Below are positions 8,170 to 52,170 of a stretch of 64,000 bases of DNA, in pieces. The notes under the pieces are model-generated. The model worked only from the letters and a program-made list of their open reading frames with translations, was not told the DNA's origin and searched no databases. The first letter of the stretch is position 1, and the number at the start of each line of letters is the position of its first letter. The translations under genes were made by a program, and so were the position numbers. The DNA comes from an uncultured Pseudomonadales bacterium (GTDB lineage Bacteria > Patescibacteriota > Microgenomatia > UBA1400 > PJMF01), in assembly GCA_964607285.1 (NCBI GenBank), contig CAZSJW010000001.1, forward strand, positions 2,514 to 66,513. The letters are read 5' to 3'.

Positions 8170-8685
8170 ATGGCACTCAAGCTTAGTAAGAAAAACACTA
8201 AAGTTCAAAAAGTTGTAAAAAAAGCTACACCAGTAGCGCAAAAATCAACTCGTAGTTCTGGCGCAGTTCGCTCGCAGGTCACGCTCCCAACTGGCCAATA
8301 TACTGAGGGTGTAGGTCGCCGAAAGGTAGCAACTGCTCGTGTTCGTATTTACGAGGGTATGGGTGATTTTGTAGTCAATGGCCGTGTGGTGGGTGAGTAC
8401 TTTGCAACTGTTCCTTCTGCTACTCTTCGATATCTCCAAGCATTTGAAGTAACTGGTACCAAAGGCAAGTTTGCAGTTAGTGCAAAAGTGTCAGGCTCAG
8501 GTCCCTCAGCTCAATTGGATGCAGTCGTACATGGCTTATCTCGTGCGTTAGTAAAGTTCAATGGTGAATACCGTGGTTTGCTTAAAACAGCAGGCCTTCT
8601 GACTCGTGATGACCGCATGAAAGAGACTCGAAAAATCGGTATGGGTGGTAAAGCTCGCCGAAAACGACAGTCACCAAAGCGATAA
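8170..8685 (+). CDS. rpsI: 30S ribosomal protein S9 with ~40-aa basic N-terminal extension
   Basis: GVGRRKVATARVRI core and C-terminal RKIGMGGKARRKRQSPKR. Classical rplM-rpsI pair. Confidence 0.93.
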   Translation: MALKLSKKNTKVQKVVKKATPVAQKSTRSSGAVRSQVTLPTGQYTEGVGRRKVATARVRIYEGMGDFVVNGRVVGEYFATVPSATLRYLQAFEVTGTKGKFAVSAKVSGSGPSAQLDAVVHGLSRALVKFNGEYRGLLKTAGLLTRDDRMKETRKIGMGGKARRKRQSPKR

Positions 8686-8726
8686 GCTGAATTTATTTTT
8701 ACTTCGATTTTTTTCTTTGGGTCTTG

Positions 8727-9101
8727 CTAACTATTTTTTGTGGGGCTATTTGCATTTTTATAATAATTTGCCAGAAGCGTGAGTGTTGTTATGGTCGCTG
8801 ATGAAAGTGATAAAACAATACTATCTACAGACATCTGCGCTTCCATCAGCCCAGCCGTATGTAGTAAAAAAGTGATGAGCACAATAGCTAATTCTGGAGC
8901 AGTTGCTAACAGTATATTCAGTATCTCTTTGAGTATAGGTAATGGGTCGGTTGTTTTTTCAGAGGCATCCAGCAATTCCTGAACTAGAACTCCTTTTAAT
9001 AAACCAACAAGCATTGCAACAGAAATGGGAAGTTCAGTTAGGGCGGAAGTAGTTTGTTCTGAGGATTGAGTAAGTACTTCTGCAAGTAATGTAGACTGCA
9101 T
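8727..9101 (-). CDS. Hypothetical protein (weakly supported)
   Basis: 124-aa ORF downstream of the ABC array. No obvious SD and no recognised motif. Confidence 0.35.
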   Translation of the reverse strand: MQSTLLAEVLTQSSEQTTSALTELPISVAMLVGLLKGVLVQELLDASEKTTDPLPILKEILNILLATAPELAIVLITFLLHTAGLMEAQMSVDSIVLSLSSATITTLTLLANYYKNANSPTKNS

Positions 9102-9135
9102 GTTTGTTCGTCAATGAGCTATTTTCCAGAGTATA

Positions 9136-23508: not shown

Positions 23509-23538
23509 AAAAAGCCCCTCTTGGGGGAGGGGCTTTTC
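23509..23538 (-). terminator. Intrinsic terminator downstream of 23563..24132
   Basis: Stem AGCCCCTC/GAGGGGCT flanked by an A-run on + (a U-run on the - strand). Confidence 0.7.
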
Positions 23539-23562: not shown

Positions 23563-24132
23563 TTAGGAGGACGGCTCGAACCAGAAGGTGGCACCTGTGT
23601 CCCACCCTCTCGCATAGTAGTCGTTGTAAGCCAGTTGCCAGCTAGGGTGAGTGTTTAGCTCACCTCCAACATCCACAACATGGTTTCCGCTGACATTCGG
23701 ACACGGATTTTCGTTCGGAATTTCTGAGTGAGGAGGCACTGGCCAAGCCACGCCACCTGTGCAGTATCCCGCGGGGGGTTGCATGGGGCCTGAAAACAGT
23801 ATCGGGAGAAAAATCACATTTGTGCCTCCCTGCATAGGCTCGAACCAGAAGGTGGCACCTGTGTCCCACCCTCTCGCATAGTAGTCGTTGTAAGCCAGTT
23901 GCCAGCTAGGGTGAGTGTTTAGCTCACCTCCAACATCCACAACATGGTTTCCGCTGACATTCGGACACGGATTTTCGTTCGGAATTTCTGAGTGAGGAGG
24001 CACTGGCCAAGCCACGCCACCTGTGCAGTATCCCGCGGGGGGGGTCACTGTTCCGCCCTGCCCATGCACAACAAGGGCAGTCAGCAGTGAAAAGAAAAAA
24101 ACAAGCATAGTCATTGTCAACTTGCGTTCCAT
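23563..24132 (-). CDS. Secreted protein consisting of a perfectly duplicated ~69-aa module
   Basis: Signal peptide MTMLVFFFSLLTALVVHG. The module PPAGYCTGGVAWPVPPHSEIPNENPCPNVSGNHVVDVGGELNTHPSWQLAYNDYYARGWDTGATFWFEP occurs twice. SD GGAGG upstream. Looks GC-richer than its surroundings. Confidence 0.85.
   Translation of the reverse strand: MERKLTMTMLVFFFSLLTALVVHGQGGTVTPPAGYCTGGVAWPVPPHSEIPNENPCPNVSGNHVVDVGGELNTHPSWQLAYNDYYARGWDTGATFWFEPMQGGTNVIFLPILFSGPMQPPAGYCTGGVAWPVPPHSEIPNENPCPNVSGNHVVDVGGELNTHPSWQLAYNDYYARGWDTGATFWFEPSS
23573..24042. repeat. Tandem direct repeat, period 264 bp, with 206 bp identical in both copies
   Basis: 23573..23778 is identical base for base to 23837..24042 (compared by eye). 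The copies end in G6 (23773..23778) and G8 (24037..24044) runs. Confidence 0.9.
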
Positions 24133-24527: not shown

Positions 24528-24791
24528 ATGAAAATTGAAACTATGTCCACACCACTCGCTGCTTTATTTGTAGCTGTAGCTATCGCTGCAACCGCAGGTT
24601 TAGCTTACACTGCTGCTCAACAGCAGATGCGAAACCAAGCTGTGGAGAGTTGTTTCCGCGCTGGTATGGTGGAGTCTGTCCGCGAAGGCGAAGGAGAGAC
24701 TAAAGAGCTAAAAATCACTGAGCCAGTTCGTGAAATCTACACATACTGCTTGCAAGACAAGGGGTATACCTCTGTCATTCAGGGTAAGTAG
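24528..24791 (+). CDS. Small membrane-anchored/secreted protein
   Basis: 87 aa. N-terminal hydrophobic segment PLAALFVAVAIAATAGLAY, two Cys, own promoter and SD. Confidence 0.65.
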   Translation: MKIETMSTPLAALFVAVAIAATAGLAYTAAQQQMRNQAVESCFRAGMVESVREGEGETKELKITEPVREIYTYCLQDKGYTSVIQGK

Positions 24792-25708
24792 GTATCCCTG
24801 GGATCTAAAGTCGGATCAGTTTTTTCTAACACCACACTGAAGGGTGATGTCCCGCTGTAGTGTTTTGCGTCCATCATGGCGTATGCTTCTAGTTCGTACC
24901 CAGTAGTTAGATCCATAATTTGCTCGTACAGGGTATTAAATTTGCCTCGGAGGTATCTTAGTGGTAAAGCTAGAACCAAACTGATTGAGATTGCCCCTAA
25001 AGCCGAGGGGTTTGTAAGTGCTTGCTCAGCGATGGCAAAACCTGAGATAAATGCAGCTCCCGTGAAAGCCGCAAAGGTTTTGAGACGAAACTCTAAAATT
25101 CTACGATGAGCCTGTTTCATTTCTTTTGTTGGCCCTTTGACCCTTTGTATTAGATGTTGCCGTTCATGTCTCCACATTGCATCGAGAAGTTGTCGGAAAT
25201 ATTGGGGTTTATATTCCTCTGGTAAGTTTCTAGGAAAAAATAGTCGGTGTGTATGAGGCGTCCCTTTGGTAAACAGTGAATACAGAGATAGAATGTCAAA
25301 CTGCATTTTTGGTTCTGTTAGTAGCAACCGGTGATTCAATTTATCAACTTGATCTGCTGCAGACATTAGTATTGGTACGTCCAACTTTAGAATCTGGTTT
25401 GCGTGTTCAGTATCATTGGACATCACACCAGCTTTAATGCTGCGCACTAGCTCGGATTGATTTGTTTGGCTGCTAATGATCGGTACAAAGGTGTCCGAAA
25501 TCCGTTCCGCTTCAGCCTCTGATAGACCTTGTCGAATTGCTTCTGCTTTGAGGTCTGCTCTCATGCGTGCAGTATCGATTCTGATAATTGCATGTGCTTC
25601 GGAAATCTGTATACCAATCTCGTATACTCGATCCTTCAGGAGCTCAGTCACTTGCTTTTCAGAGATGTGTCGTTGTGTTGAGCCCTCACTTGGATTTTTT
25701 TCTGACAT
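24779..25708 (-). CDS. HExxH-motif membrane protein (intact paralog)
   Basis: 309 aa. Soluble N-domain, conserved LDAMWRHERQHL (HExxH), two hydrophobic segments, then ELEAYAMMDAKHY. Paralogous over its full length to 25748..26724. Confidence 0.8.
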   Translation of the reverse strand: MSEKNPSEGSTQRHISEKQVTELLKDRVYEIGIQISEAHAIIRIDTARMRADLKAEAIRQGLSEAEAERISDTFVPIISSQTNQSELVRSIKAGVMSNDTEHANQILKLDVPILMSAADQVDKLNHRLLLTEPKMQFDILSLYSLFTKGTPHTHRLFFPRNLPEEYKPQYFRQLLDAMWRHERQHLIQRVKGPTKEMKQAHRRILEFRLKTFAAFTGAAFISGFAIAEQALTNPSALGAISISLVLALPLRYLRGKFNTLYEQIMDLTTGYELEAYAMMDAKHYSGTSPFSVVLEKTDPTLDPRDTYLP

Positions 25709-25747
25709 ACTACAATGAGTATACAGGAAACCGTGGTAGTTAGAACT

Positions 25748-26724
25748 TTAACTAAAGTATTTTTTGTGAGGATCCATGTTCGGATCAGCTTTTTCAAGCC
25801 GAACAGTGAATGGTGAGTTGGCTCTGTGGTGTTCTGCAGTCATCATGGCGTAGGCCTCAATTTCTTCGTTACTTAGCAAGTTTAGCGCTCTGTCACTAAT
25901 CATACTCACAAGTATGCTAACTGGCATAGCTAGTCCAATTGAGACGTTTACACTTGGAGGTAGCTGAAGATTCAGCAAAGACAATCCAGTAGAAGCCCAA
26001 GAAAGAAACAAAGCACCTTTAAAGACGGAGCGCATTAGGTTAGCAATTTTACGATGTCTAATATGTGAATCTGTGATTCCCTTATCCTTCTCTGGCTTTA
26101 AGTATTGCACTAAATGCTCACGCTCGTGTCGCCACATCGCATCCAGTGCTTGCTTGATGTACTGAGTTTTCATTTCTGGAGGCAGCGTATCTTTGGGAAA
26201 AACCACACGAACAGAACTTAGTGCATGTTTGCTAAATAAGGAGTGTATGCTGATGATATCAGGACTTACTTTAGCCGAGCGTAGTTGAAATCGATGATTG
26301 AAACGAGTCTCTTTTCAAATGTTTCGAGTATCCCTTCCCAGTCAAATCCGAGCATTGAGCCAAGCTCAGCAACTTTTCTTACGAATGTCCCTTGGTCTTG
26401 CTCATTTTTTCCAGGTCTTCGTCTTTGATTAAAAAGTACAATATTGTCTCTACCAATTATTGGGAAAAAAAGTTTTGCTGCTAGTTCTGCCCTGGGCTCA
26501 GAAACCCCTTGCTGTATAGCATACTCGTAGAGATCCTGGCGCATCTTACCTGTATCTACTGAAATAGTTGCGATGTCATCATCAAAGGGTTGGATAAGCT
26601 CATACACTTGATCTTCACCCAGTTCCAGTAGTTCCTCATCTGTGATTTCCTGAGGTCTGACAGGAGCGATATCTAAAGTATTTGGATGTAAAGTATCTGT
26701 AGAATGTGTCTCATCGTAGTTCAT
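25748..26724 (-). pseudogene. Frameshifted paralog of 24779..25708 (tracked as two ORFs, 26266..26724 and 25748..26206)
   Basis: The N-ORF aligns to the N-half of the intact paralog and the C-ORF to the C-half (LDAMWRHEREHL, EIEAYAMMTAEHH). C-frame homology continues upstream of its ATG (NHRFQLRSAKVSPDIISIHSLF vs NHRLLLTEPKMQFDILSLYSLF). The frames switch near GAAAAG (26311..26316). Confidence 0.7.
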
Positions 26725-26841: not shown

Positions 26842-28986
26842 ATGCCCAAATCAGTTCCACAGTTGCTCAGGAAATCACTTAGTTCCCTATTGTTTCACTT
26901 GCCTGTGATTGTGTTGGGCATGTTTTTAGCAGCGTGGTTTACATTCCCTGCTATCACCCAACTGCGAACACACTTCATCGGTGATGGTGGAGATAACTAC
27001 CAGTACGCAGGTTTTCAGTACCTAGTAGCTACTAACATCGATTCTGGCAAGTGGCCGTATGCTGCTTTGCAGAGTTGGTACTATCCAAATGGTTTTGAGT
27101 TTGCTCGTGGGTATGACAGTGTTTTGTCTACACTGGGTGGTGGGTTGTTGGTTTTGTTGACTAGGGATTTAGCCTATAGCTATAACTTAAGCATCCTCTT
27201 CTCCTTCCTTTTCAATTTTTTAGCAGCATACGCGCTGTATTGGAATCTGAGCCGCTCTCGGATGTGGGCAAGTGTGGGTGCGGTGCTGTTTGGTTTCTCG
27301 TTTTATGCACTCGCACGGGCGGGGGGGCATGCGAACTTGTTGCTGATTGGTGGGTTTCCCTTATTCCTTTTGAGTCTGCTGCAGTTGCTACGTAAACAAG
27401 AGTGGCGAGCGGTGCTTCTGTTGGGTTTGGCTAGTATTTTGCTAGTGTTTAGTTCTTTACAGTACGCGCTAATGGCAGTGGCAAGTTTATTGATCGGTAT
27501 ACCACTGGTTGCATTAGTGTATCCAGAAGCAATGGGGGCAGTGCTGTTCAAAAAAATACCAGCTGCGTTTTTGCAGTTAGCGGTCGTAGGATTGTTTGTG
27601 TGTGTGGTGGCTGCACCATTTGTTTGGCCATTTATCCATGCATATCAGGCACAGGATTTTTATCAGCGAGGCGAGTTCGACTTTAGTCCTCGTATGGTGG
27701 ATTTATTGCTGCCAAACCCATATTTTCCTGTTCCCTTGAGTTCGCTATTACCAGTTGTTCCTGGTACGGTGGGGATTGAACAGACGATTGCGCTTGGACC
27801 TGTATTTTTTGTGTTGATTGTTTTTTTGCTGTGGAGGTTTCGCAGGCAGCATGTAGTGGGCTTAGCGGGTTTGGTGCTCACGGTATTTGGCATTTTGGCA
27901 CTAGGCACGCGTAACCCTGAGACAGGCATCATCTTGCCTTACCACTTGCTGAGTTCGGTCTTCCCATTTTCGGCAATTCCTGAGGCTGGTCGGTTTGTGG
28001 TGGTTATGAATGTTGTAGGTGGGGCATTGATTGCATCATATGGCAAGAAGATTTTTCGAGGGCGGGCAGCTCGTGTGTCACTTGGGATGTTTGTCTTAGT
28101 TTTGCTCATTCTTGAACGGTCAAGTTGGGGCAAGTTCTTTCAGCTGCCAGTACCGAGTTTGGGGTTAGCGCAAGCAGTGCAGGCACAACCAGGTGCTGCA
28201 GTCTTGGAGCTGCCACTGTTTGAGCAGCGACAAAGTGTCTCACCTGTGTACTTCCACAAAGCTACCCTCACTGGAGAACCGCACTGGCTGGCGCATACTC
28301 CCCAGGCTATGGCTTTTTTGCAGGGTAATCCTGCGCTGGCGGGGTTGACGTGTTTTGATCGCACGCATTTGACAGGGACGGTGCCAGGGCAAGGTTTGAG
28401 CATTAGCACAGAGGAGCGCGCAGCCTTTTTCAAGTACCTCAAAACTGCAGGTGTTCAAACTGTGGTGATCCGCAGGGATGGAACGCTGTACTGGGATATG
28501 TGTCGTGAAACACTTGCACGGATTGATCAACTTTTCCCACAGTATCTTACTGCTGAAATCACTGCGCAGGGAGCACAGTCAGAGACGCAGATGTTTTGGA
28601 GTGGAGAGGCGTTCACTGGTGGGCTGTACTTCCCAAGTAGTGGAGCTTTAACTATTCATGGCTTTTCCTATATGCCCTATGATGAGCAACCAGAATTGAG
28701 GATTGATGGTCAACAGGTGTCTGCTGAGCAGTGGAGCTATGAAGTTTCAACGCATGAGAGCGGGGAGCGAATGGTCTTTGTTCGTACAGGCGCAGCTGGT
28801 GAGCGACACCAGGTATCTGCTGGAGCTACGCTGGAAACGACTATTGCTAAAACGCCGCAACACCGGGGGGTGCTGACACTTTGGTACACGTATGAGCCAG
28901 TGGGTGCTGAAGAGCTACAGCTACAGGATGGAGTAGTTACAAAAGTGTATGAGGAGTCGGCTGTGGAGGTGTGGCGGATTGAGTGA
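26842..28986 (+). CDS. 714-aa polytopic membrane protein, GT-C/YfhO-like candidate
   Basis: ATG at 26842 preferred, because the tracked start 26704 overlaps the divergent gene. At least 12 hydrophobic segments followed by a ~230-aa soluble C-terminal region. Family not verified. Confidence 0.7.
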   Translation: MPKSVPQLLRKSLSSLLFHLPVIVLGMFLAAWFTFPAITQLRTHFIGDGGDNYQYAGFQYLVATNIDSGKWPYAALQSWYYPNGFEFARGYDSVLSTLGGGLLVLLTRDLAYSYNLSILFSFLFNFLAAYALYWNLSRSRMWASVGAVLFGFSFYALARAGGHANLLLIGGFPLFLLSLLQLLRKQEWRAVLLLGLASILLVFSSLQYALMAVASLLIGIPLVALVYPEAMGAVLFKKIPAAFLQLAVVGLFVCVVAAPFVWPFIHAYQAQDFYQRGEFDFSPRMVDLLLPNPYFPVPLSSLLPVVPGTVGIEQTIALGPVFFVLIVFLLWRFRRQHVVGLAGLVLTVFGILALGTRNPETGIILPYHLLSSVFPFSAIPEAGRFVVVMNVVGGALIASYGKKIFRGRAARVSLGMFVLVLLILERSSWGKFFQLPVPSLGLAQAVQAQPGAAVLELPLFEQRQSVSPVYFHKATLTGEPHWLAHTPQAMAFLQGNPALAGLTCFDRTHLTGTVPGQGLSISTEERAAFFKYLKTAGVQTVVIRRDGTLYWDMCRETLARIDQLFPQYLTAEITAQGAQSETQMFWSGEAFTGGLYFPSSGALTIHGFSYMPYDEQPELRIDGQQVSAEQWSYEVSTHESGERMVFVRTGAAGERHQVSAGATLETTIAKTPQHRGVLTLWYTYEPVGAEELQLQDGVVTKVYEESAVEVWRIE

Positions 28987-29033
28987 GTGTGGTAGTATGT
29001 GATGAGTATAGTGTTTTGTGTAAAGGAGCAGAT

Positions 29034-29261
29034 ATGAACCAGTATAAGGAAATGTATTCAGCAACAATGCAGCGGCATGCTAATATGGTACTCAATGACT
29101 GGCTGATGAACCCAGAAACTCCGTTGGAGAAAATTCAAGAAGAAGAAGGTCAAATTAAATTAGCAATAGCCCGTGTTGAAAGAGGGGAAGTGACTTCTGA
29201 GCACAAAGTTGAGGAGTTGAAGCAGCGGTATACTGCTGTTTTGGGGGTGAATTGGAGTTAG
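29034..29261 (+). CDS. Small hypothetical protein
   Basis: 75 aa from the ATG at 29034, with SD AAAGGAG. The tracked upstream GTG extension overlaps the previous gene. Confidence 0.5.
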   Translation: MNQYKEMYSATMQRHANMVLNDWLMNPETPLEKIQEEEGQIKLAIARVERGEVTSEHKVEELKQRYTAVLGVNWS

Positions 29262-29314
29262 CTTTATTGTGTAGACTTGTGTGGCTTTAGCACTCATAGA
29301 TCAGAAATCGTAAC

Positions 29315-29397
29315 AAAAAACCCCCTCATCATTGCTGATGAGGGGGGCTAAACTACGGCTTCTACTGGTGTAGCGAGTGAGCCAGAACTACGAACTT
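29315..29397 (-). ncRNA. Candidate ~83-nt small RNA with its own promoter and intrinsic terminator
   Basis: On the - strand: TTGTCA (29431..29426), 16-nt spacer, TATAAT (29409..29404). About 50 nt of unique sequence follows, then an 11-bp GC-rich hairpin (29347..29321) and U6 (29320..29315). No ORF. Family unknown. Confidence 0.45.
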
Positions 29398-29525
29398 CTT
29401 AAAATTATACTAAATTTCTATTGCCTGACAATTAGTGAATTCCAGGCTCTAGTCAGTTGTGGAGGCGACCCCGCCATGGCGGGGCAAGCCAGAGTTCGTA
29501 GTTCTGGCTCTACACCGGTAGCGCC
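29357..29525. repeat. Long imperfect inverted repeat (arms ~39 and ~32 nt, 98-nt spacer)
   Basis: Left arm 29357..29395 (GGCTTCTACTGGTGTAGCGAGTGAGCCAGAACTACGAAC) pairs with right arm 29494..29525 (GTTCGTAGTTCTGGCTCTACACCGGTAGCGCC). The core of 17 bp is perfect. Confidence 0.85.
29404..29431 (-). promoter_or_regulatory. Sigma70-type promoter TTGTCA-16-TATAAT inside the loop of the 29357..29525 inverted repeat
   Basis: Read directly from the reverse complement of 29404..29431. Confidence 0.5.
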
Positions 29526-29904
29526 CCCACAGCTGACAGGTGTAGTGTATTTTCTGATCTTTACGCAAACTGTAGCGTTCTTGTTGCAGCAAGTGCTTTT
29601 GTGGCATGCACTGGTGTTTGATCTGTTGCAAACTTTTGGGTTTTCAACTTGGTGGTGATGTTATTACGCGGTTGTAGCAGAGCAGTTTAGCTTACTGGAA
29701 ATTGAAGGGTTGGTTGATAAAACAGTTTAACTAGCGTATGAGCGTTGTAGTTCATTTCAGCTATGATGGACATTTTGTGGTGTGGTGAGAATGTTGAGGA
29801 TTGGGATAAGATTAATAGTGGGTGTATTGGCAAAAAGGGGATTGTGGTGGAGGAAGTAAAGAAAAAGTTGAGATTGTAGAGGTTTTTGAGCATGATGAGG
29901 CAAT

Positions 29905-29934
29905 AAAAAGCCCGTCTTGGGGACGGGCTTTTCA
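29905..29934 (-). terminator. Intrinsic terminator downstream of 29951..30604
   Basis: Stem AGCCCGTC/GACGGGCT with a U-run on the - strand. Near-identical in design and sequence to the terminator at 23509..23538. Confidence 0.7.
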
Positions 29935-29950
29935 GTGAGTGTTATGGGGG

Positions 29951-30604
29951 CTACGGTGAGGAAAACAAAGCAATCTTGGTCACGAATTCCTGAAACCAGG
30001 TAGCACAAAGTACATTTCGCGACAAAGCTTGTTCAGCGTATGTCACACAATAACTTGTGCGTTGCTCTGATGTCAGGAGTTGCTCGGCTCGCTGGAATGC
30101 CCATGCGAGGTGTTCTGGCGTGATATAGGACTGGTGCGGGTTCAATCCCGCAGTAGCCAATCCATTCACACTTTCACACTGCACAACGAGGGGGTGACCC
30201 AGGGCCACGTTCCCCTCGTCTAATTTCCAAACGCTTCCGTTGACCCATCCCGTTCGGTCGGCCATAGCATCAACTTCTGCGCGTCCGTTGGCTTGGCACG
30301 CGCTGTGTGCATTTGCTGGGTTGGTCGAGCCGCCCCAGGGGCCGATAACCAGGACAGTGGCGTTTTCCAGGCATTGCCAATTGTCCTTGGTAGATGTGGT
30401 TACACCCGCTCCAGACTCGTTTGTACCCTGGTAAACCAGGGCGTCTTGACCTGTACAAACGCGTTCGGTAAACACCCCAGGTGTTCCTGGGGCGGGGTCA
30501 GGAGACCCCGATTGCGCCTGTGCGGCTGGCGCGACCGGTCCAAGCAGGACAACGGCTAAAATGGCACCCAAAATGAGGCCAAGGACGATTTGATAGCGCT
30601 TCAT
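29951..30604 (-). CDS. Secreted Cys-containing protein (217 aa)
   Basis: ATG at 30604 is preceded by AAGGAG. Signal peptide MKRYQIVLGLILGAILAVVLLGPVAPAAQA. Multiple Cys. Looks GC-richer than neighbours. The tracked 270-aa ORF has an unlikely N-extension. Confidence 0.8.
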   Translation of the reverse strand: MKRYQIVLGLILGAILAVVLLGPVAPAAQAQSGSPDPAPGTPGVFTERVCTGQDALVYQGTNESGAGVTTSTKDNWQCLENATVLVIGPWGGSTNPANAHSACQANGRAEVDAMADRTGWVNGSVWKLDEGNVALGHPLVVQCESVNGLATAGLNPHQSYITPEHLAWAFQRAEQLLTSEQRTSYCVTYAEQALSRNVLCATWFQEFVTKIALFSSP

Positions 30605-31289
30605 CGTTTTAAACTCCTTACTAGCGCAAACGTTAAATGACCTTTTCGTAGTCATCACGCCTATGCCTCTTTGCCATTTCTGGCAAGTCTGACATAGGAC
30701 CCTGCGCCCAAAGCACCTCGCTCGCTGCAACAAACTTGCAGACGGAACAAAGCCTTTAGCCACACGATCCTATGCCAAACATAGAGACAGTACGCTTTGA
30801 GGAGCACTGTATTTGGTAGCCGATGTGGTTTCCCACATCTTATTCCCACTTTTTAAAGAACAATCACTGGGCAAGGGTTGATGGTAGTCGAACGGCACAC
30901 GAGGTGACGCTCGAGCAGCTATCTAGCTTGCTCTTATCAGCAGTTATGCGAACAATCATTTGGCAGCAATTGCCAATGGTTTTTCGCGGTGAACCACTGG
31001 TATCAAGAAGAAACTTCTTGACACGTGTTTCAGTCCAAACTGGGGGGAGAGAAAGAAAGGGTGGACGGAAACAACTGTCAATAAGTCTGAGAGTCATGTC
31101 GTGCGTGGCCGCAACGTAAGTGCCATCAGGGGTGAAATTGATTCGAGCGATGGCAGAGCTCGAAGCTACATAAGGCATACGTATTACTAGATAGTACTAT
31201 AGCACAATTGGGCAGTGGTGTCAATGTTATGGGACTTTATCTTGTAGAGAATTTTTGTTAGAAAGAGAGTACTTTCTTCGGACACATAC

Positions 31290-34807: not shown

Positions 34808-34920
34808 AAACGATCCTTTTAGATCTACTTGTATCGAGTAGATGGGATTGTACCGCAAGAATGTCTTATTGTCAATAGTTATAGGGTGTTTTGTGCGGAA
34901 GCGTTACAGATGAGCGTTTA

Positions 34921-52096: not shown

Positions 52097-52170
52097 CGGG
52101 GAGTAGTTCAGATGGCTAGAATGCTCGCATGGGGTGCGAGTGGTCGCAGGTTCGAGTCCTGTCTCCCCGA
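52097..52170 (+). tRNA. tRNA-Pro (anticodon GGG)
   Basis: Hand-folded cloverleaf. Acceptor CGGGGAG/CTCCCCG, D-arm with GG, anticodon stem CTCGC/GCGAG, loop AT-GGG-GT, 5-nt variable loop, T-arm GCAGG-TTCGAGT-CCTGT, discriminator A. CCA not encoded. Confidence 0.9.

Follow-up and report, generated by a model that had tools for sequence, protein, structure and literature searches.

A candidate membrane-peptide gene with a predicted embedded antisense RNA unit and a long inverted repeat in a patescibacterial genome

General features of the locus

A locus in a Patescibacteria (CPR) genome probably contains an overlooked 60-codon membrane-peptide gene on the plus strand (ORF60), whose leader and first codons are occupied by a promoter-to-terminator small RNA (sRNA) unit and a long inverted repeat. 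The locus lies within a stretch of 64 000 nucleotides, referred to below as the window. Judged from its sequence, the sRNA is better read as a cis-antisense RNA directed against the ORF60 mRNA leader than as a free-standing trans-acting sRNA, because the distal arm of the repeat, a GC hairpin and part of the spacer between the arms are the initiation region and codons 1-17 of ORF60. The sequence elements and their statistical rarity, the coding-like properties of ORF60 and the absence of the surrounding cassette from relatives are direct observations, and a thermodynamic calculation predicts two folding states. We tentatively regard the locus as an orphan, lineage-specific small-gene cassette that could act as a type I toxin-antitoxin-like module, with presumed transcripts and presumed toxicity, an interpretation that we find plausible but short of probable.

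The cassette covers about 960 bp (28987-29950) between the convergent 760-aa gene (plus strand) and 270/217-aa genes (minus strand). It comprises ORF75, the sRNA gene, ORF60 and a G-rich tail. The 760-aa neighbour was used as a synteny anchor for the comparison with relatives. In the nearest of these (L001), the orthologous flanking genes (49% and 53% identity) are only 111 nt apart and the cassette is absent. The segment is also absent from the more distant relatives examined, and no homologue of it was found in any database searched. Its GC content is 0.39-0.47, compared with about 0.5-0.59 in the flanks. This lower GC content, the Shine-Dalgarno (SD) motifs on both cassette ORFs and the canonical signals that are otherwise rare here suggest a self-contained acquired module. 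The sole variant (L027) comes from the same strain and carries one non-synonymous SNP in the distal arm, which breaks a pair and is uncompensated. Conservation with compensatory changes, the mark of a conserved trans-acting sRNA, was not found in the relatives examined.

ORF75 (29034-29261, plus strand) codes for an orphan small protein and has the motif GGAG 5 nt before its ATG. Its codon-usage score is 0.244, a value reached by 0.4% of spurious ORFs. A full HMMER search (ORF92/75) against 1.84 billion representatives returned the self-match only. AlphaFold2 predicts three helices (pLDDT 68). Foldseek gave no match at E < 3 for this model, and Pfam, PHROGs and PADLOC assigned no family to ORF75 and had no match for the cassette ORFs or the neighbouring genes.

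The G-rich, C-poor tail (29600-29900, plus strand) has a GC skew of up to +0.74 and includes a possible 38-codon ORF (29763-29879, plus strand; score 0.138, reached by 8.5% of spurious ORFs). A bidirectional terminator-like hairpin (29905-29933) ends the 270-aa gene on the minus strand and the cassette on the plus strand. This hairpin is identical at 27 of 30 positions to another at 23509-23538. No plus-strand terminator was found between ORF75 and 29933, and no plus-strand promoter matching at least 9 of 12 consensus positions was found between ORF75 and ORF60, so that co-transcription through the proximal arm of the repeat is the simplest reading. A weak plus-strand promoter, GTGAGC-17-TAAAAT, is present at 29377-29405, and its -10 box overlaps that of the sRNA.

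The minus-strand RNA unit

The sequence-only reading of this DNA had proposed a minus-strand promoter, TTGTCA-16-TATAAT (29431-29404), followed by an 11-bp GC hairpin and U6. Both signals are present. The -35 box TTGTCA (29431-29426) and the -10 box TATAAT (29409-29404), separated by a 16-nt spacer, match the consensus at 11 of 12 positions. The 64 kb contain only four sites with this 11/12 score, compared with about 1.9 to be expected in shuffled sequence; every one of them lies on the minus strand, and the other three (at 34875, 31224 and 24446) each lie close upstream of a minus-strand ORF. The intrinsic terminator (29315-29346, minus strand), about 83 nt downstream, consists of the stem CCCCCTCATCA/TGATGAGGGGG (29346-29336 paired with 29331-29321; 11 bp, 7 GC), a 4-nt loop and a run of six T residues (U6 in the RNA, 29320-29315). 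Under strict criteria no other canonical intrinsic terminator is present anywhere on the minus strand of the window, and on the plus strand the same hairpin has no U-tract. By a rough estimate, the probability that any of the four promoters is followed by such a terminator at a distance of 150 nt or less is about 0.01. As both signals are rare in this genome and are correctly spaced, the promoter-to-terminator unit is the best-supported single element of the locus.

From the positions of the promoter and the terminator, transcription is predicted to start near 29397 and to end near 29315, giving an sRNA of about 83 nt (29315-29397, minus strand). Its first 14 nt are predicted to be single-stranded, and its fold has a z score of -3.65. 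The earlier statement that there is no ORF is right for the sRNA itself, whose approximately 83 nt hold no plausible ORF, and wrong for the locus, which carries ORF60 on the plus strand. The predicted sRNA is perfectly complementary to plus-strand positions 29315-29397. Its 5' half is antisense to the repeat arm in the plus-strand leader and is a sense copy of the distal arm. No outstanding trans target of the sRNA was found in the 64 kb.

The earlier reading had seen no tmRNA, RNase P or SRP motifs and had left room for a known class of non-coding RNA that it could not recognise; the Rfam scan finds no known family on either strand. Across the whole window (4227 models, gathering thresholds) only a tRNA-Pro at 52097 passes. 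At E <= 10 the best match in the interval 28900-30000 is PyrR, with 24.8 bits against a threshold of 54, and nothing credible was found there; the matches to PyrR, PyrG-leader, rdlD and NsiR1 are terminator-driven and far below threshold. Retrons, CRISPR/tracrRNA, TIGR-Tas, IS110 bridge RNA and IS605 omega-RNA were also considered and dropped, because the locus lacks a repeat array and the neighbouring genes include no recognisable reverse transcriptase, Cas protein, Nop-domain protein, recombinase or TnpB-like protein. An attenuator, in which leader and terminator would serve a minus-strand ORF of 45 codons (29297-29160), was rejected because the codon usage of this ORF is non-coding (-0.03) and because it is antisense to the much better ORF75.

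The ORF60 mini-gene

ORF60 (29476-29658, plus strand; 60 codons, MAGQARVRSSGSTPVAPPQLTGVVYFLIFTQTVAFLLQQVLLWHALVFDLLQTFGFSTWW) is preceded by the SD sequence GGAGG (29461-29465), 10 nt before the ATG. In the window, GGAGG is found upstream of 0.6% of ATGs, and SD motifs are found upstream of six of 35 genes. The codon-usage score of ORF60 is 0.207, compared with 0.221 ± 0.09 for true genes, and is reached by 1.8% of spurious ORFs. The ORF is also called as a 60-aa gene in a public NCBI-derived annotation.

The AlphaFold2 model has a helix at residues 18-53 (pLDDT 95-98) and a disordered N-terminus of 17 residues, which coincides with the distal arm of the repeat. The N-terminus is basic, and hydropathy reaches a maximum of 1.78 (19-residue window). 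ORF60 thus has the size and hydrophobicity of a type I toxin gene, with one long hydrophobic helix in 60 aa. Type I toxins are usually at most 60 aa long, and ORF60 stands at this upper limit. A database search for homologues (ORF93/60) matched the same locus only; the protein cluster has two members, both of which are this locus in two assemblies. No match was obtained in Pfam (even at E <= 10), PHROG or PADLOC, and the peptide belongs to no known toxin family.

The inverted repeat and its predicted folding

The long imperfect inverted repeat noticed earlier is real and exceeds chance (18 + 12 bp, 96-nt spacer). Its main arms, 29379-29396 and 29493-29510, are 18 nt long, 100% complementary and 96 nt apart, and form the longest perfect inverted repeat in the window. 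They are extended by 12-nt arms (29362-29373 and 29510-29521) that are 92% complementary, with an offset due to a 6-nt bulge. On plus-strand RNA, the proximal arm (arm P, 29357-29397), which lies in the spacer between ORF75 and ORF60 and contains the bulge CGAGTG, pairs with the distal arm (arm D, 29492-29525), which corresponds to codons 6-17 of ORF60. The helices are 29379-29397/29492-29510 (19 bp), 29362-29372/29511-29521 (11 bp) and 29357-29359/29523-29525.

The region 29290-29570, from after the ORF75 stop codon to codon 31 of ORF60, folds with z of about -8.2 on both strands. Folding energy is uninformative for strand assignment (-120.1 versus -117.1 kcal/mol). The earlier proposal that long minus-strand transcripts would fold through the repeat agrees with the equal stability on that strand, and it missed the possible role of the repeat in a plus-strand mRNA. 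In plus-strand RNA the pairs 29366/29517 and 29397/29492 are G.U wobbles; in minus-strand RNA they become A.C mismatches, and both asymmetries favour plus-strand RNA. The sRNA had further been proposed to pair in trans with the distal arm; this would apply to a minus-strand transcript and fails for the plus-strand mRNA, since the sRNA is a sense copy of that arm as it stands in the mRNA.

The GC hairpin CCCCGCC-ATGG-CGGGG, also pointed out before, is located at 29468-29484. Its 6-bp stem (29469-29484, plus strand) carries the ORF60 start codon (ATG, 29476-29478) in the 4-nt loop region, and in both modelled states the unpaired probability is about 0 for the stem and about 1.0 for the AUG. Downstream, an anti-SD segment (29522-29537, plus strand) can pair with 29452-29467, SD included. 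The corresponding helices (29452-29462/29527-29537 and 29464-29467/29522-29525) are predicted when arm P is blocked or absent. In the predicted fold, blocking the sRNA-complementary stretch leads to the anti-SD helix, and the unpaired probabilities of G, G and A in the SD change from 0.14/0.42/0.71 to 0/0/1.0. The SD is still mostly paired in the fold modelled without the sRNA, with a mean unpaired probability of 0.25. The anti-SD helix may coexist with the repeat as a pseudoknot, a type of structure that the folding program cannot evaluate. An outer closing helix joins 29298-29307 to 29551-29560, and a further one joins 29267-29275 to 29560-29568; support for the outer helix is modest, because a 10-nt perfect repeat has a chance estimate of about 0.04. 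The sequestration of the initiation region and the long-distance pairing typical of toxin mRNAs are thus both found in silico, represented by the hairpin around the AUG, the stem between leader and ORF, and the anti-SD helix.

A possible mode of regulation

The type I-like reading supposes that both RNAs are made and that arm P is included in the mRNA. The ORF60 message would be part of a transcript that starts upstream of arm P, probably together with ORF75. When the sRNA is absent, arm P would pair with arm D, about 100 nt downstream, and the SD would be partly open. Binding of the sRNA to arm P would be easiest on nascent RNA, before arm D is made. With arm P occupied, arm D would be released and the anti-SD helix could close the SD completely, and the sRNA:mRNA duplex of about 80 bp would be a substrate for RNase III. 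The net effect would be that the sRNA keeps the membrane peptide, presumably toxic, switched off. Such repression would be indirect, as 64 nt separate the end of the sRNA target from the SD downstream.

The direction of regulation is itself a supposition. The leader:ORF stem could be an RNase III substrate in its own right, in which case the sRNA would be an activator rather than a repressor. The weak plus-strand promoter could also start the mRNA downstream of arm P and leave the sRNA without a target on it. ORF60 is single-copy and belongs to no known toxin family, and neither ORF60, ORF75 nor the RNA has a homologue in the databases searched, all of which counts against a type I module.

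Alternative readings of the locus

A free-standing sRNA acting in trans, with ORF60 unexpressed or unrelated and the repeat serving minus-strand read-through only or being incidental, seems unlikely to us. It would account well for the promoter-terminator unit, the strongest feature of the locus, for the predicted unpaired 5' seed and for a fold that is just as stable on the minus strand. It is at odds with the independent coding evidence for ORF60, the G.U asymmetry in favour of the plus strand, the lack of conservation of the unit in relatives and the lack of an outstanding trans target in the 64 kb; moreover, no good minus-strand promoter for a long transcript is present upstream, and the 270-aa gene has its own terminator. 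The repeat could also work at the DNA level, its arms being paired operators that flank back-to-back promoters and are looped together by a regulator, possibly ORF75. The arms are about 114 bp apart centre to centre, roughly 11 helical turns and therefore in helical phase; they contain local palindromes such as GCCAGA-N9-TCTGGC and CTAC-N4-GTAG, the weak plus-strand -10 box overlaps that of the sRNA, and ORF75 is predicted to be small and helical. We nevertheless give this reading a small chance: no DNA-binding fold or family could be recognised in ORF75, 35 bp is an atypical length for an operator, and the anti-SD segment, the AUG hairpin and the G.U wobbles would be left unexplained. A MITE-like mobile element with the arms as terminal inverted repeats, which had been raised as an alternative, is extremely unlikely. 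Inverted arms of about 35 bp around about 100 bp, in a segment that relatives lack, do resemble such an element, but the copy search found no dispersed copies in the window or the databases. An 18-mer scan with the arms gave 20 matches in genome contigs, 16 in metagenome contigs and none in viral contigs, none of them with both arms and all at chance level, and the ORF60 cluster consists of one locus in two assemblies. As noted before, there is no target-site duplication: neither the inner flanks (ACGGCTT/CCCACAG) nor the outer flanks (CTCAT/TTACG) match. The segment missing from relatives, about 960 bp, is also far longer than the 165-bp repeat unit. Recurrent arm matches of 21-24 nt in Atopobiaceae lie inside a conserved membrane-protein gene, and two arm-like copies in L004 are part of an unrelated 320-bp tandem repeat.

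The remaining alternatives start from a resemblance between the arms and the ribosomal protein gene rpsI. A segment of rpsI (8224-8272, plus strand) that covers codons 19-35, in the N-terminal extension of S9, shares 13 + 13 (+7) nt with the arms, with the reading frame preserved and the order of the pieces permuted. The matches, to rpsI 8224-8236 and 8250-8272, are exact 13-mers with a 20/23 extension, and the permuted copy shows a 3-nt junction microhomology. The extension is conserved except in this shared stretch, which is variable and species-specific. No other relationship of this kind turned up among 276 tiled queries, and one of 300 shuffles produced one, in a post hoc test on one genome. 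Among 4,232 predicted partners of arm P, the three that rank highest are rpsI windows, with z as low as -5.0. A regulator or mimic directed at rpsI could be imagined, in which one arm (arm P on plus-strand RNA or arm D on minus-strand RNA) would be the antisense of the S9 mRNA. The sRNA and codons 6-17 of ORF60, as sense copies, would compete with that mRNA for the arm, and the cassette would be coupled to ribosomal-protein synthesis. This is very unlikely in our judgement, as the two segments cannot both pair in a simple duplex because of their permuted order, the site lies 54-100 nt into the coding region and away from the ribosome-binding site, and arm P is predicted to be occupied intramolecularly. 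We accord an equally slim probability to the proposition that a rearranged copy of the species-specific rpsI stretch gave rise to the inverted repeat and that the repeat has a functional link to rpsI; the likeness could be one of origin alone. In another reading, an inverted duplication or a template switch would have carried a rearranged piece of rpsI into a young orphan insertion and left behind a non-functional or barely functional relic, with expression signals that are fortuitous or left over from a donor. The permuted arms with their microhomology, the restriction of the orphan segment to one lineage and the only known SNP, which breaks a pair and changes an amino acid, are in keeping with such a relic. 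We still hold it to be rather improbable, since an 11/12 promoter, the best terminator of the window, two gene-like ORFs preceded by SD motifs and nested helices centred on a start codon are hard to obtain by accident.

Significance and comparison with known systems

No sRNAs or type I modules of Patescibacteria/CPR are described in the papers retrieved by a full-text literature search, and for these organisms both kinds of element, small regulatory RNAs as well as type I toxin-antitoxin modules, seem to be essentially undescribed. If its transcripts exist, the cassette with its cis-antisense unit would be a compact and experimentally tractable example of an sRNA or type I-like system in this group; if they do not, it is an orphan curiosity of a single genome. 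The arms, apparently copied from rpsI, make a case for a new regulatory hairpin, and perhaps a small gene, assembled from pieces of an essential gene. Should the functional link to rpsI be true, a toxin-like cassette in a reduced CPR genome would sense or modulate a ribosomal-protein mRNA, and would be a bacterial equivalent of those regulatory hairpins that originate from an inverted duplication of the gene they target.

Such an origin is reported for plants, where microRNA genes are said (by Allen et al. in 2004) to arise by inverted duplication of target-gene sequence. As in those genes, both arms of the hairpin can apparently be traced to part of a different gene in the genome, here rpsI; they differ in being a permuted copy, and the domain of life and the processing machinery are different. 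The unit also resembles generic bacterial sRNA genes in its sigma-70-like promoter, body of about 50 nt, predicted unpaired 5' end and Rho-independent terminator. Unlike these, it is embedded antisense in the leader of another gene, is not conserved in the nearest relatives and has neither an Rfam family nor a standout trans target.

In the hok/sok, ldr/rdl and ibs/sib systems of Enterobacteria, the antisense promoter lies inside the leader of the toxin mRNA and is directed away from the toxin ORF, a long-range fold-back closes the mRNA, and the antisense RNA has 60-80 nt and a strong terminator. The leader-internal antisense promoter, the long-range fold-back and the short terminated antisense RNA are predicted for the present locus as well. 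No Pfam match to Hok/Gef, Ldr or Ibs was obtained, and the rdlD match in Rfam is weak (18 bits against a gathering score of 50) and covers the terminator only. In contrast to hok/sok, the leader lacks an overlapping ORF of the mok kind, and the fold-back joins the leader to the 5' codons rather than the 5' to the 3' end.

The aapA/IsoA type I loci of Helicobacter and Campylobacter form families that were found by architecture and not by sequence (PMC5416894, PMC6733600). In Helicobacter, a short antisense RNA is encoded opposite the toxin gene and RNase III clears the duplex, while mRNA folding and SD-sequestering hairpins control translation (PMC5416894, PMC6733600). The locus described here is similar in the antisense RNA predicted on the other strand of a small gene for a hydrophobic peptide, in its predicted layered mRNA folding, with long-distance pairing and local SD-sequestering hairpins, and in a duplex that would be a substrate for RNase III. 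It has no sequence or family relationship to aapA/IsoA, its ORF has 60 aa rather than 30 aa, and it is a single-copy locus seen in one genome. Its antisense site stops 64 nt before the SD and does not reach the translation-initiation region; in the predicted fold the early codons pair with this very target, and the sRNA would be the sense copy of these codons. If this is true, control of the peptide would depend on a three-way competition between the leader arm, the early codons of ORF60 and an sRNA that copies those codons in the sense orientation.

A minus-strand promoter–terminator unit and a long inverted repeat

On the minus strand, the promoter TTGTCA-16-TATAAT (29431..29404) matches the consensus at 11 of 12 positions. 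The predicted transcript starts at 29397, 7 nt past the end of the -10 box, and about 50 nt further on there is a terminator (29346..29321) with an 11-bp stem, CCCCCTCATCA/TGATGAGGGGG, followed by T6. The interval delimits a predicted RNA of about 83 nt (29397 to 29315; hereafter the sRNA) that has no plausible ORF and whose first 14 nt are unpaired in the predicted fold. This unit had been described in the sequence-only reading and was found again at the same positions; the Rfam search proposed there found no known RNA family fitting the locus. The window contains four 11/12 promoter matches (about 1.9 expected), all on the minus strand, and the remaining three each lie close upstream of minus-strand ORFs. 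Under strict criteria, there are only three canonical intrinsic terminators in 128 kb (both strands summed), that of the sRNA being the only one on the minus strand. The chance of such a promoter and terminator adjoining is roughly 1 in 100.

The long imperfect inverted repeat reported earlier is also confirmed. It consists of a perfect inner part of 18 nt (29379–29396/29493–29510, 96 nt apart) and, beyond a 6-nt bulge, an outer part of 12 nt at 92% (29362–29373/29510–29521). The proximal arm is called P (29357–29397) and the distal arm D (29492–29525). The inner part is the longest perfect inverted repeat of the 64 kb, and for both strands the fold of 29290–29570 has a z near -8.2.

A probable small gene on the plus strand

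The first interpretation, whose minus-strand unit stands, is supported in part; what it missed is a plus-strand Shine–Dalgarno (SD) motif, GGAGG (29461–29465), 10 nt upstream of the ATG (29476) of a 60-codon frame, ORF60 (29476–29658). This motif precedes just 0.6% of the ATGs in the window. The codon-usage score of ORF60 is 0.207 (0.221 ± 0.09 for true genes), a value reached by 1.8% of spurious open frames of like length, and NCBI-derived data annotate it as a 60-aa gene. AlphaFold2, run with no alignment, predicts residues 1–17 as disordered and a single helix at 18–53 (pLDDT 95–98); hydropathy reaches 1.78. Arm D corresponds to codons 6–17 and coincides with the disordered part. The GC hairpin CCCCGCC-AUGG-CGGGG, previously noted as such, carries the start codon in its loop (CCCCGCC-ATGG-CGGGG in DNA).

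Upstream lies ORF75 (plus strand, 29034–29261, 75 codons), with GGAG 5 nt before its start and a codon score of 0.244, attained by 0.4% of spurious ORFs. Arm P is within the 214-nt spacer between the two frames, where no plus-strand promoter of 9/12 or better was found; nor is there a plus-strand terminator before the bidirectional hairpin at 29905–29933. SD motifs precede 6 of the 35 window genes; these motifs and canonical terminators, scarce window-wide, are concentrated in the segment 28987–29950 (the cassette).

The hairpin at 29905–29933 and another bidirectional terminator-like hairpin at 23509–23538 are identical at 27 of 30 positions (AAAAAGCCCGTCTTGGGG-ACGGGCTTTTC and AAAAAGCCCCTCTTGGGGGAGGGGCTTTTC). 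The plus-strand tail 29600–29900 is rich in G and poor in C (GC skew up to +0.74) and includes a possible 38-codon ORF (29763–29879, MMDILWCGENVEDWDKINSGCIGKKGIVVEEVKKKLRL) of undecided coding status.

Genomic context

By its ribosomal protein S9 homologues, the organism belongs to the Patescibacteria. The cassette is flanked by convergent genes for proteins of 760 aa and 270/217 aa. In L001, the closest available relative, their orthologues (49% and 53% identity) are 111 nt apart. Because the segment is absent there and in more distant relatives, its approximately 960 bp are a lineage-specific gain. Its GC content is below that of the flanks, and database searches revealed no homologues of ORF75 or ORF60. 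A single further sequence was found: L027, from a metagenome assembly of the same locus. Over 1476 bp it shows one difference, T29495G in arm D, which replaces V7 of ORF60 by G, a non-synonymous change, and disrupts one pair of the stem without compensation.

About 430–590 nt upstream of the start of the gene for the secreted 270/217-aa protein lies an 11/12 promoter, TTGACA-17-TATAGT (31224–31196; window 30764–31224). In L001 (4340–4800), a comparable TTGACA...TATACT is accompanied by a long hairpin directly ahead of the start codon; these features point to a long leader in each of the two genomes. Elsewhere on the minus strand, a predicted secreted protein of 189 aa (23563–24132) contains, by eye, a long stretch starting PPAGYCTGGVAWPV twice in tandem, unchanged. 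At 24779–26724, a 309-aa protein resembles, again by eye, a fusion of, or parent to, two adjoining 152-aa ORFs; they have motifs such as DAMWRHER(Q/E)HL in common, and none of the three has a Pfam match.

Resemblance of the arms to rpsI

The arms have two exact 13-mers in common with codons 19–35 of rpsI, the ribosomal protein S9 gene (GCTACACCAGTAG, 8224–8236, and TCGTAGTTCTGGC, 8250–8262, both plus strand), and in one arm the match extends to 20/23. The two pieces are circularly permuted, with the junction at a GCT microhomology, and are read in the same frame (TPVA, RSSG in S9; RSSG, TPVA in ORF60). Such co-located matches were confined to the rpsI and cassette windows in a test of 276 tiled 690-nt queries, and 1 of 300 shuffles gave the rpsI–arm pattern. 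The N-terminal extension of S9 keeps its length throughout the clade; since the arm-like stretch is its variable part, and differs in relatives whose S9 is 90% and 87% identical, the copy is probably recent and species-specific. Arm P (plus strand) is antisense to rpsI, and rpsI windows are its top three predicted partners of 4232 in the window (z down to -5.0). The resemblance may mark only the origin of the hairpin, or it may reflect a regulatory link.

On the 3' side of rpsI, a 450-bp stretch (8686–9135) with a 124-codon minus-strand ORF (8727–9101) looks like another lineage-specific insertion; in four relatives (L028, L030, L033 and L034) the next gene, for an ABC-2 transporter, begins within a few bases of the rpsI stop.

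Predicted RNA folding

With arm P free, the minimum-energy fold pairs 29357–29397 with 29492–29525, enclosing the AUG hairpin and leaving the first bases of the SD partly open (modelled unpaired probabilities 0.14, 0.42 and 0.71). When the sRNA-complementary region 29315–29397 is blocked, or absent from an RNA that begins downstream of it, the model forms a 16-position plus-strand anti-SD helix (29452–29467 with 29522–29537) and the SD is fully paired. Complementarity of 29298–29307 and 29551–29560 would provide an outer helix closing the whole domain. The two imperfect repeat positions are G.U pairs in plus-strand RNA and A.C mismatches on the minus strand; this asymmetry (2/2) is weak evidence for use of the stem in mRNA. 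Owing to the inverted arrangement of the arms, the sRNA matches ORF60 codons 6–17 in sense and is antisense to arm P, for which it would therefore compete with those 5' codons.

Interpretation of the cassette

The reading that we tentatively favour is a type I toxin–antitoxin-like cassette, in which a gene for a small membrane peptide, its initiation region buried, is combined with a cis-antisense sRNA made from inside the ORF60 leader. We infer that both RNAs exist and that arm P belongs to the ORF60 message. Binding of the sRNA would free the anti-SD and form an RNase III substrate, and the peptide is presumably toxic. The direction of control is likewise putative, given that the long intramolecular stem may also be a target for cleavage, in which case the sRNA would be an activator.

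That the minus-strand unit is a free-standing sRNA to which ORF60 is irrelevant seems rather unlikely, and a young, essentially neutral product of inverted duplication somewhat less plausible still. Arms acting at the DNA level, as operators flanking back-to-back promoters, are unlikely, and we consider a hairpin or mimic directed at rpsI very unlikely. A MITE, named as an alternative in the sequence-only reading, is highly improbable: it lacks support, as no target-site duplication is present and no further copy turned up, exact-arm scans of genome, metagenome and viral collections having given single-arm matches only, at chance level.

The toxin–antitoxin-like reading rests on a single genome and predictions; it lends itself to clean tests, and regulation of this kind is unexplored in the phylum. 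The cassette may be best described as an orphan antisense sRNA and mini-gene of the type I toxin–antitoxin kind, with an unusual mimic topology. The predicted folding of the ORF60 mRNA is layered, as reported for the type I toxin mRNAs aapA1 and aapA3 (PMC5416894, PMC6733600).
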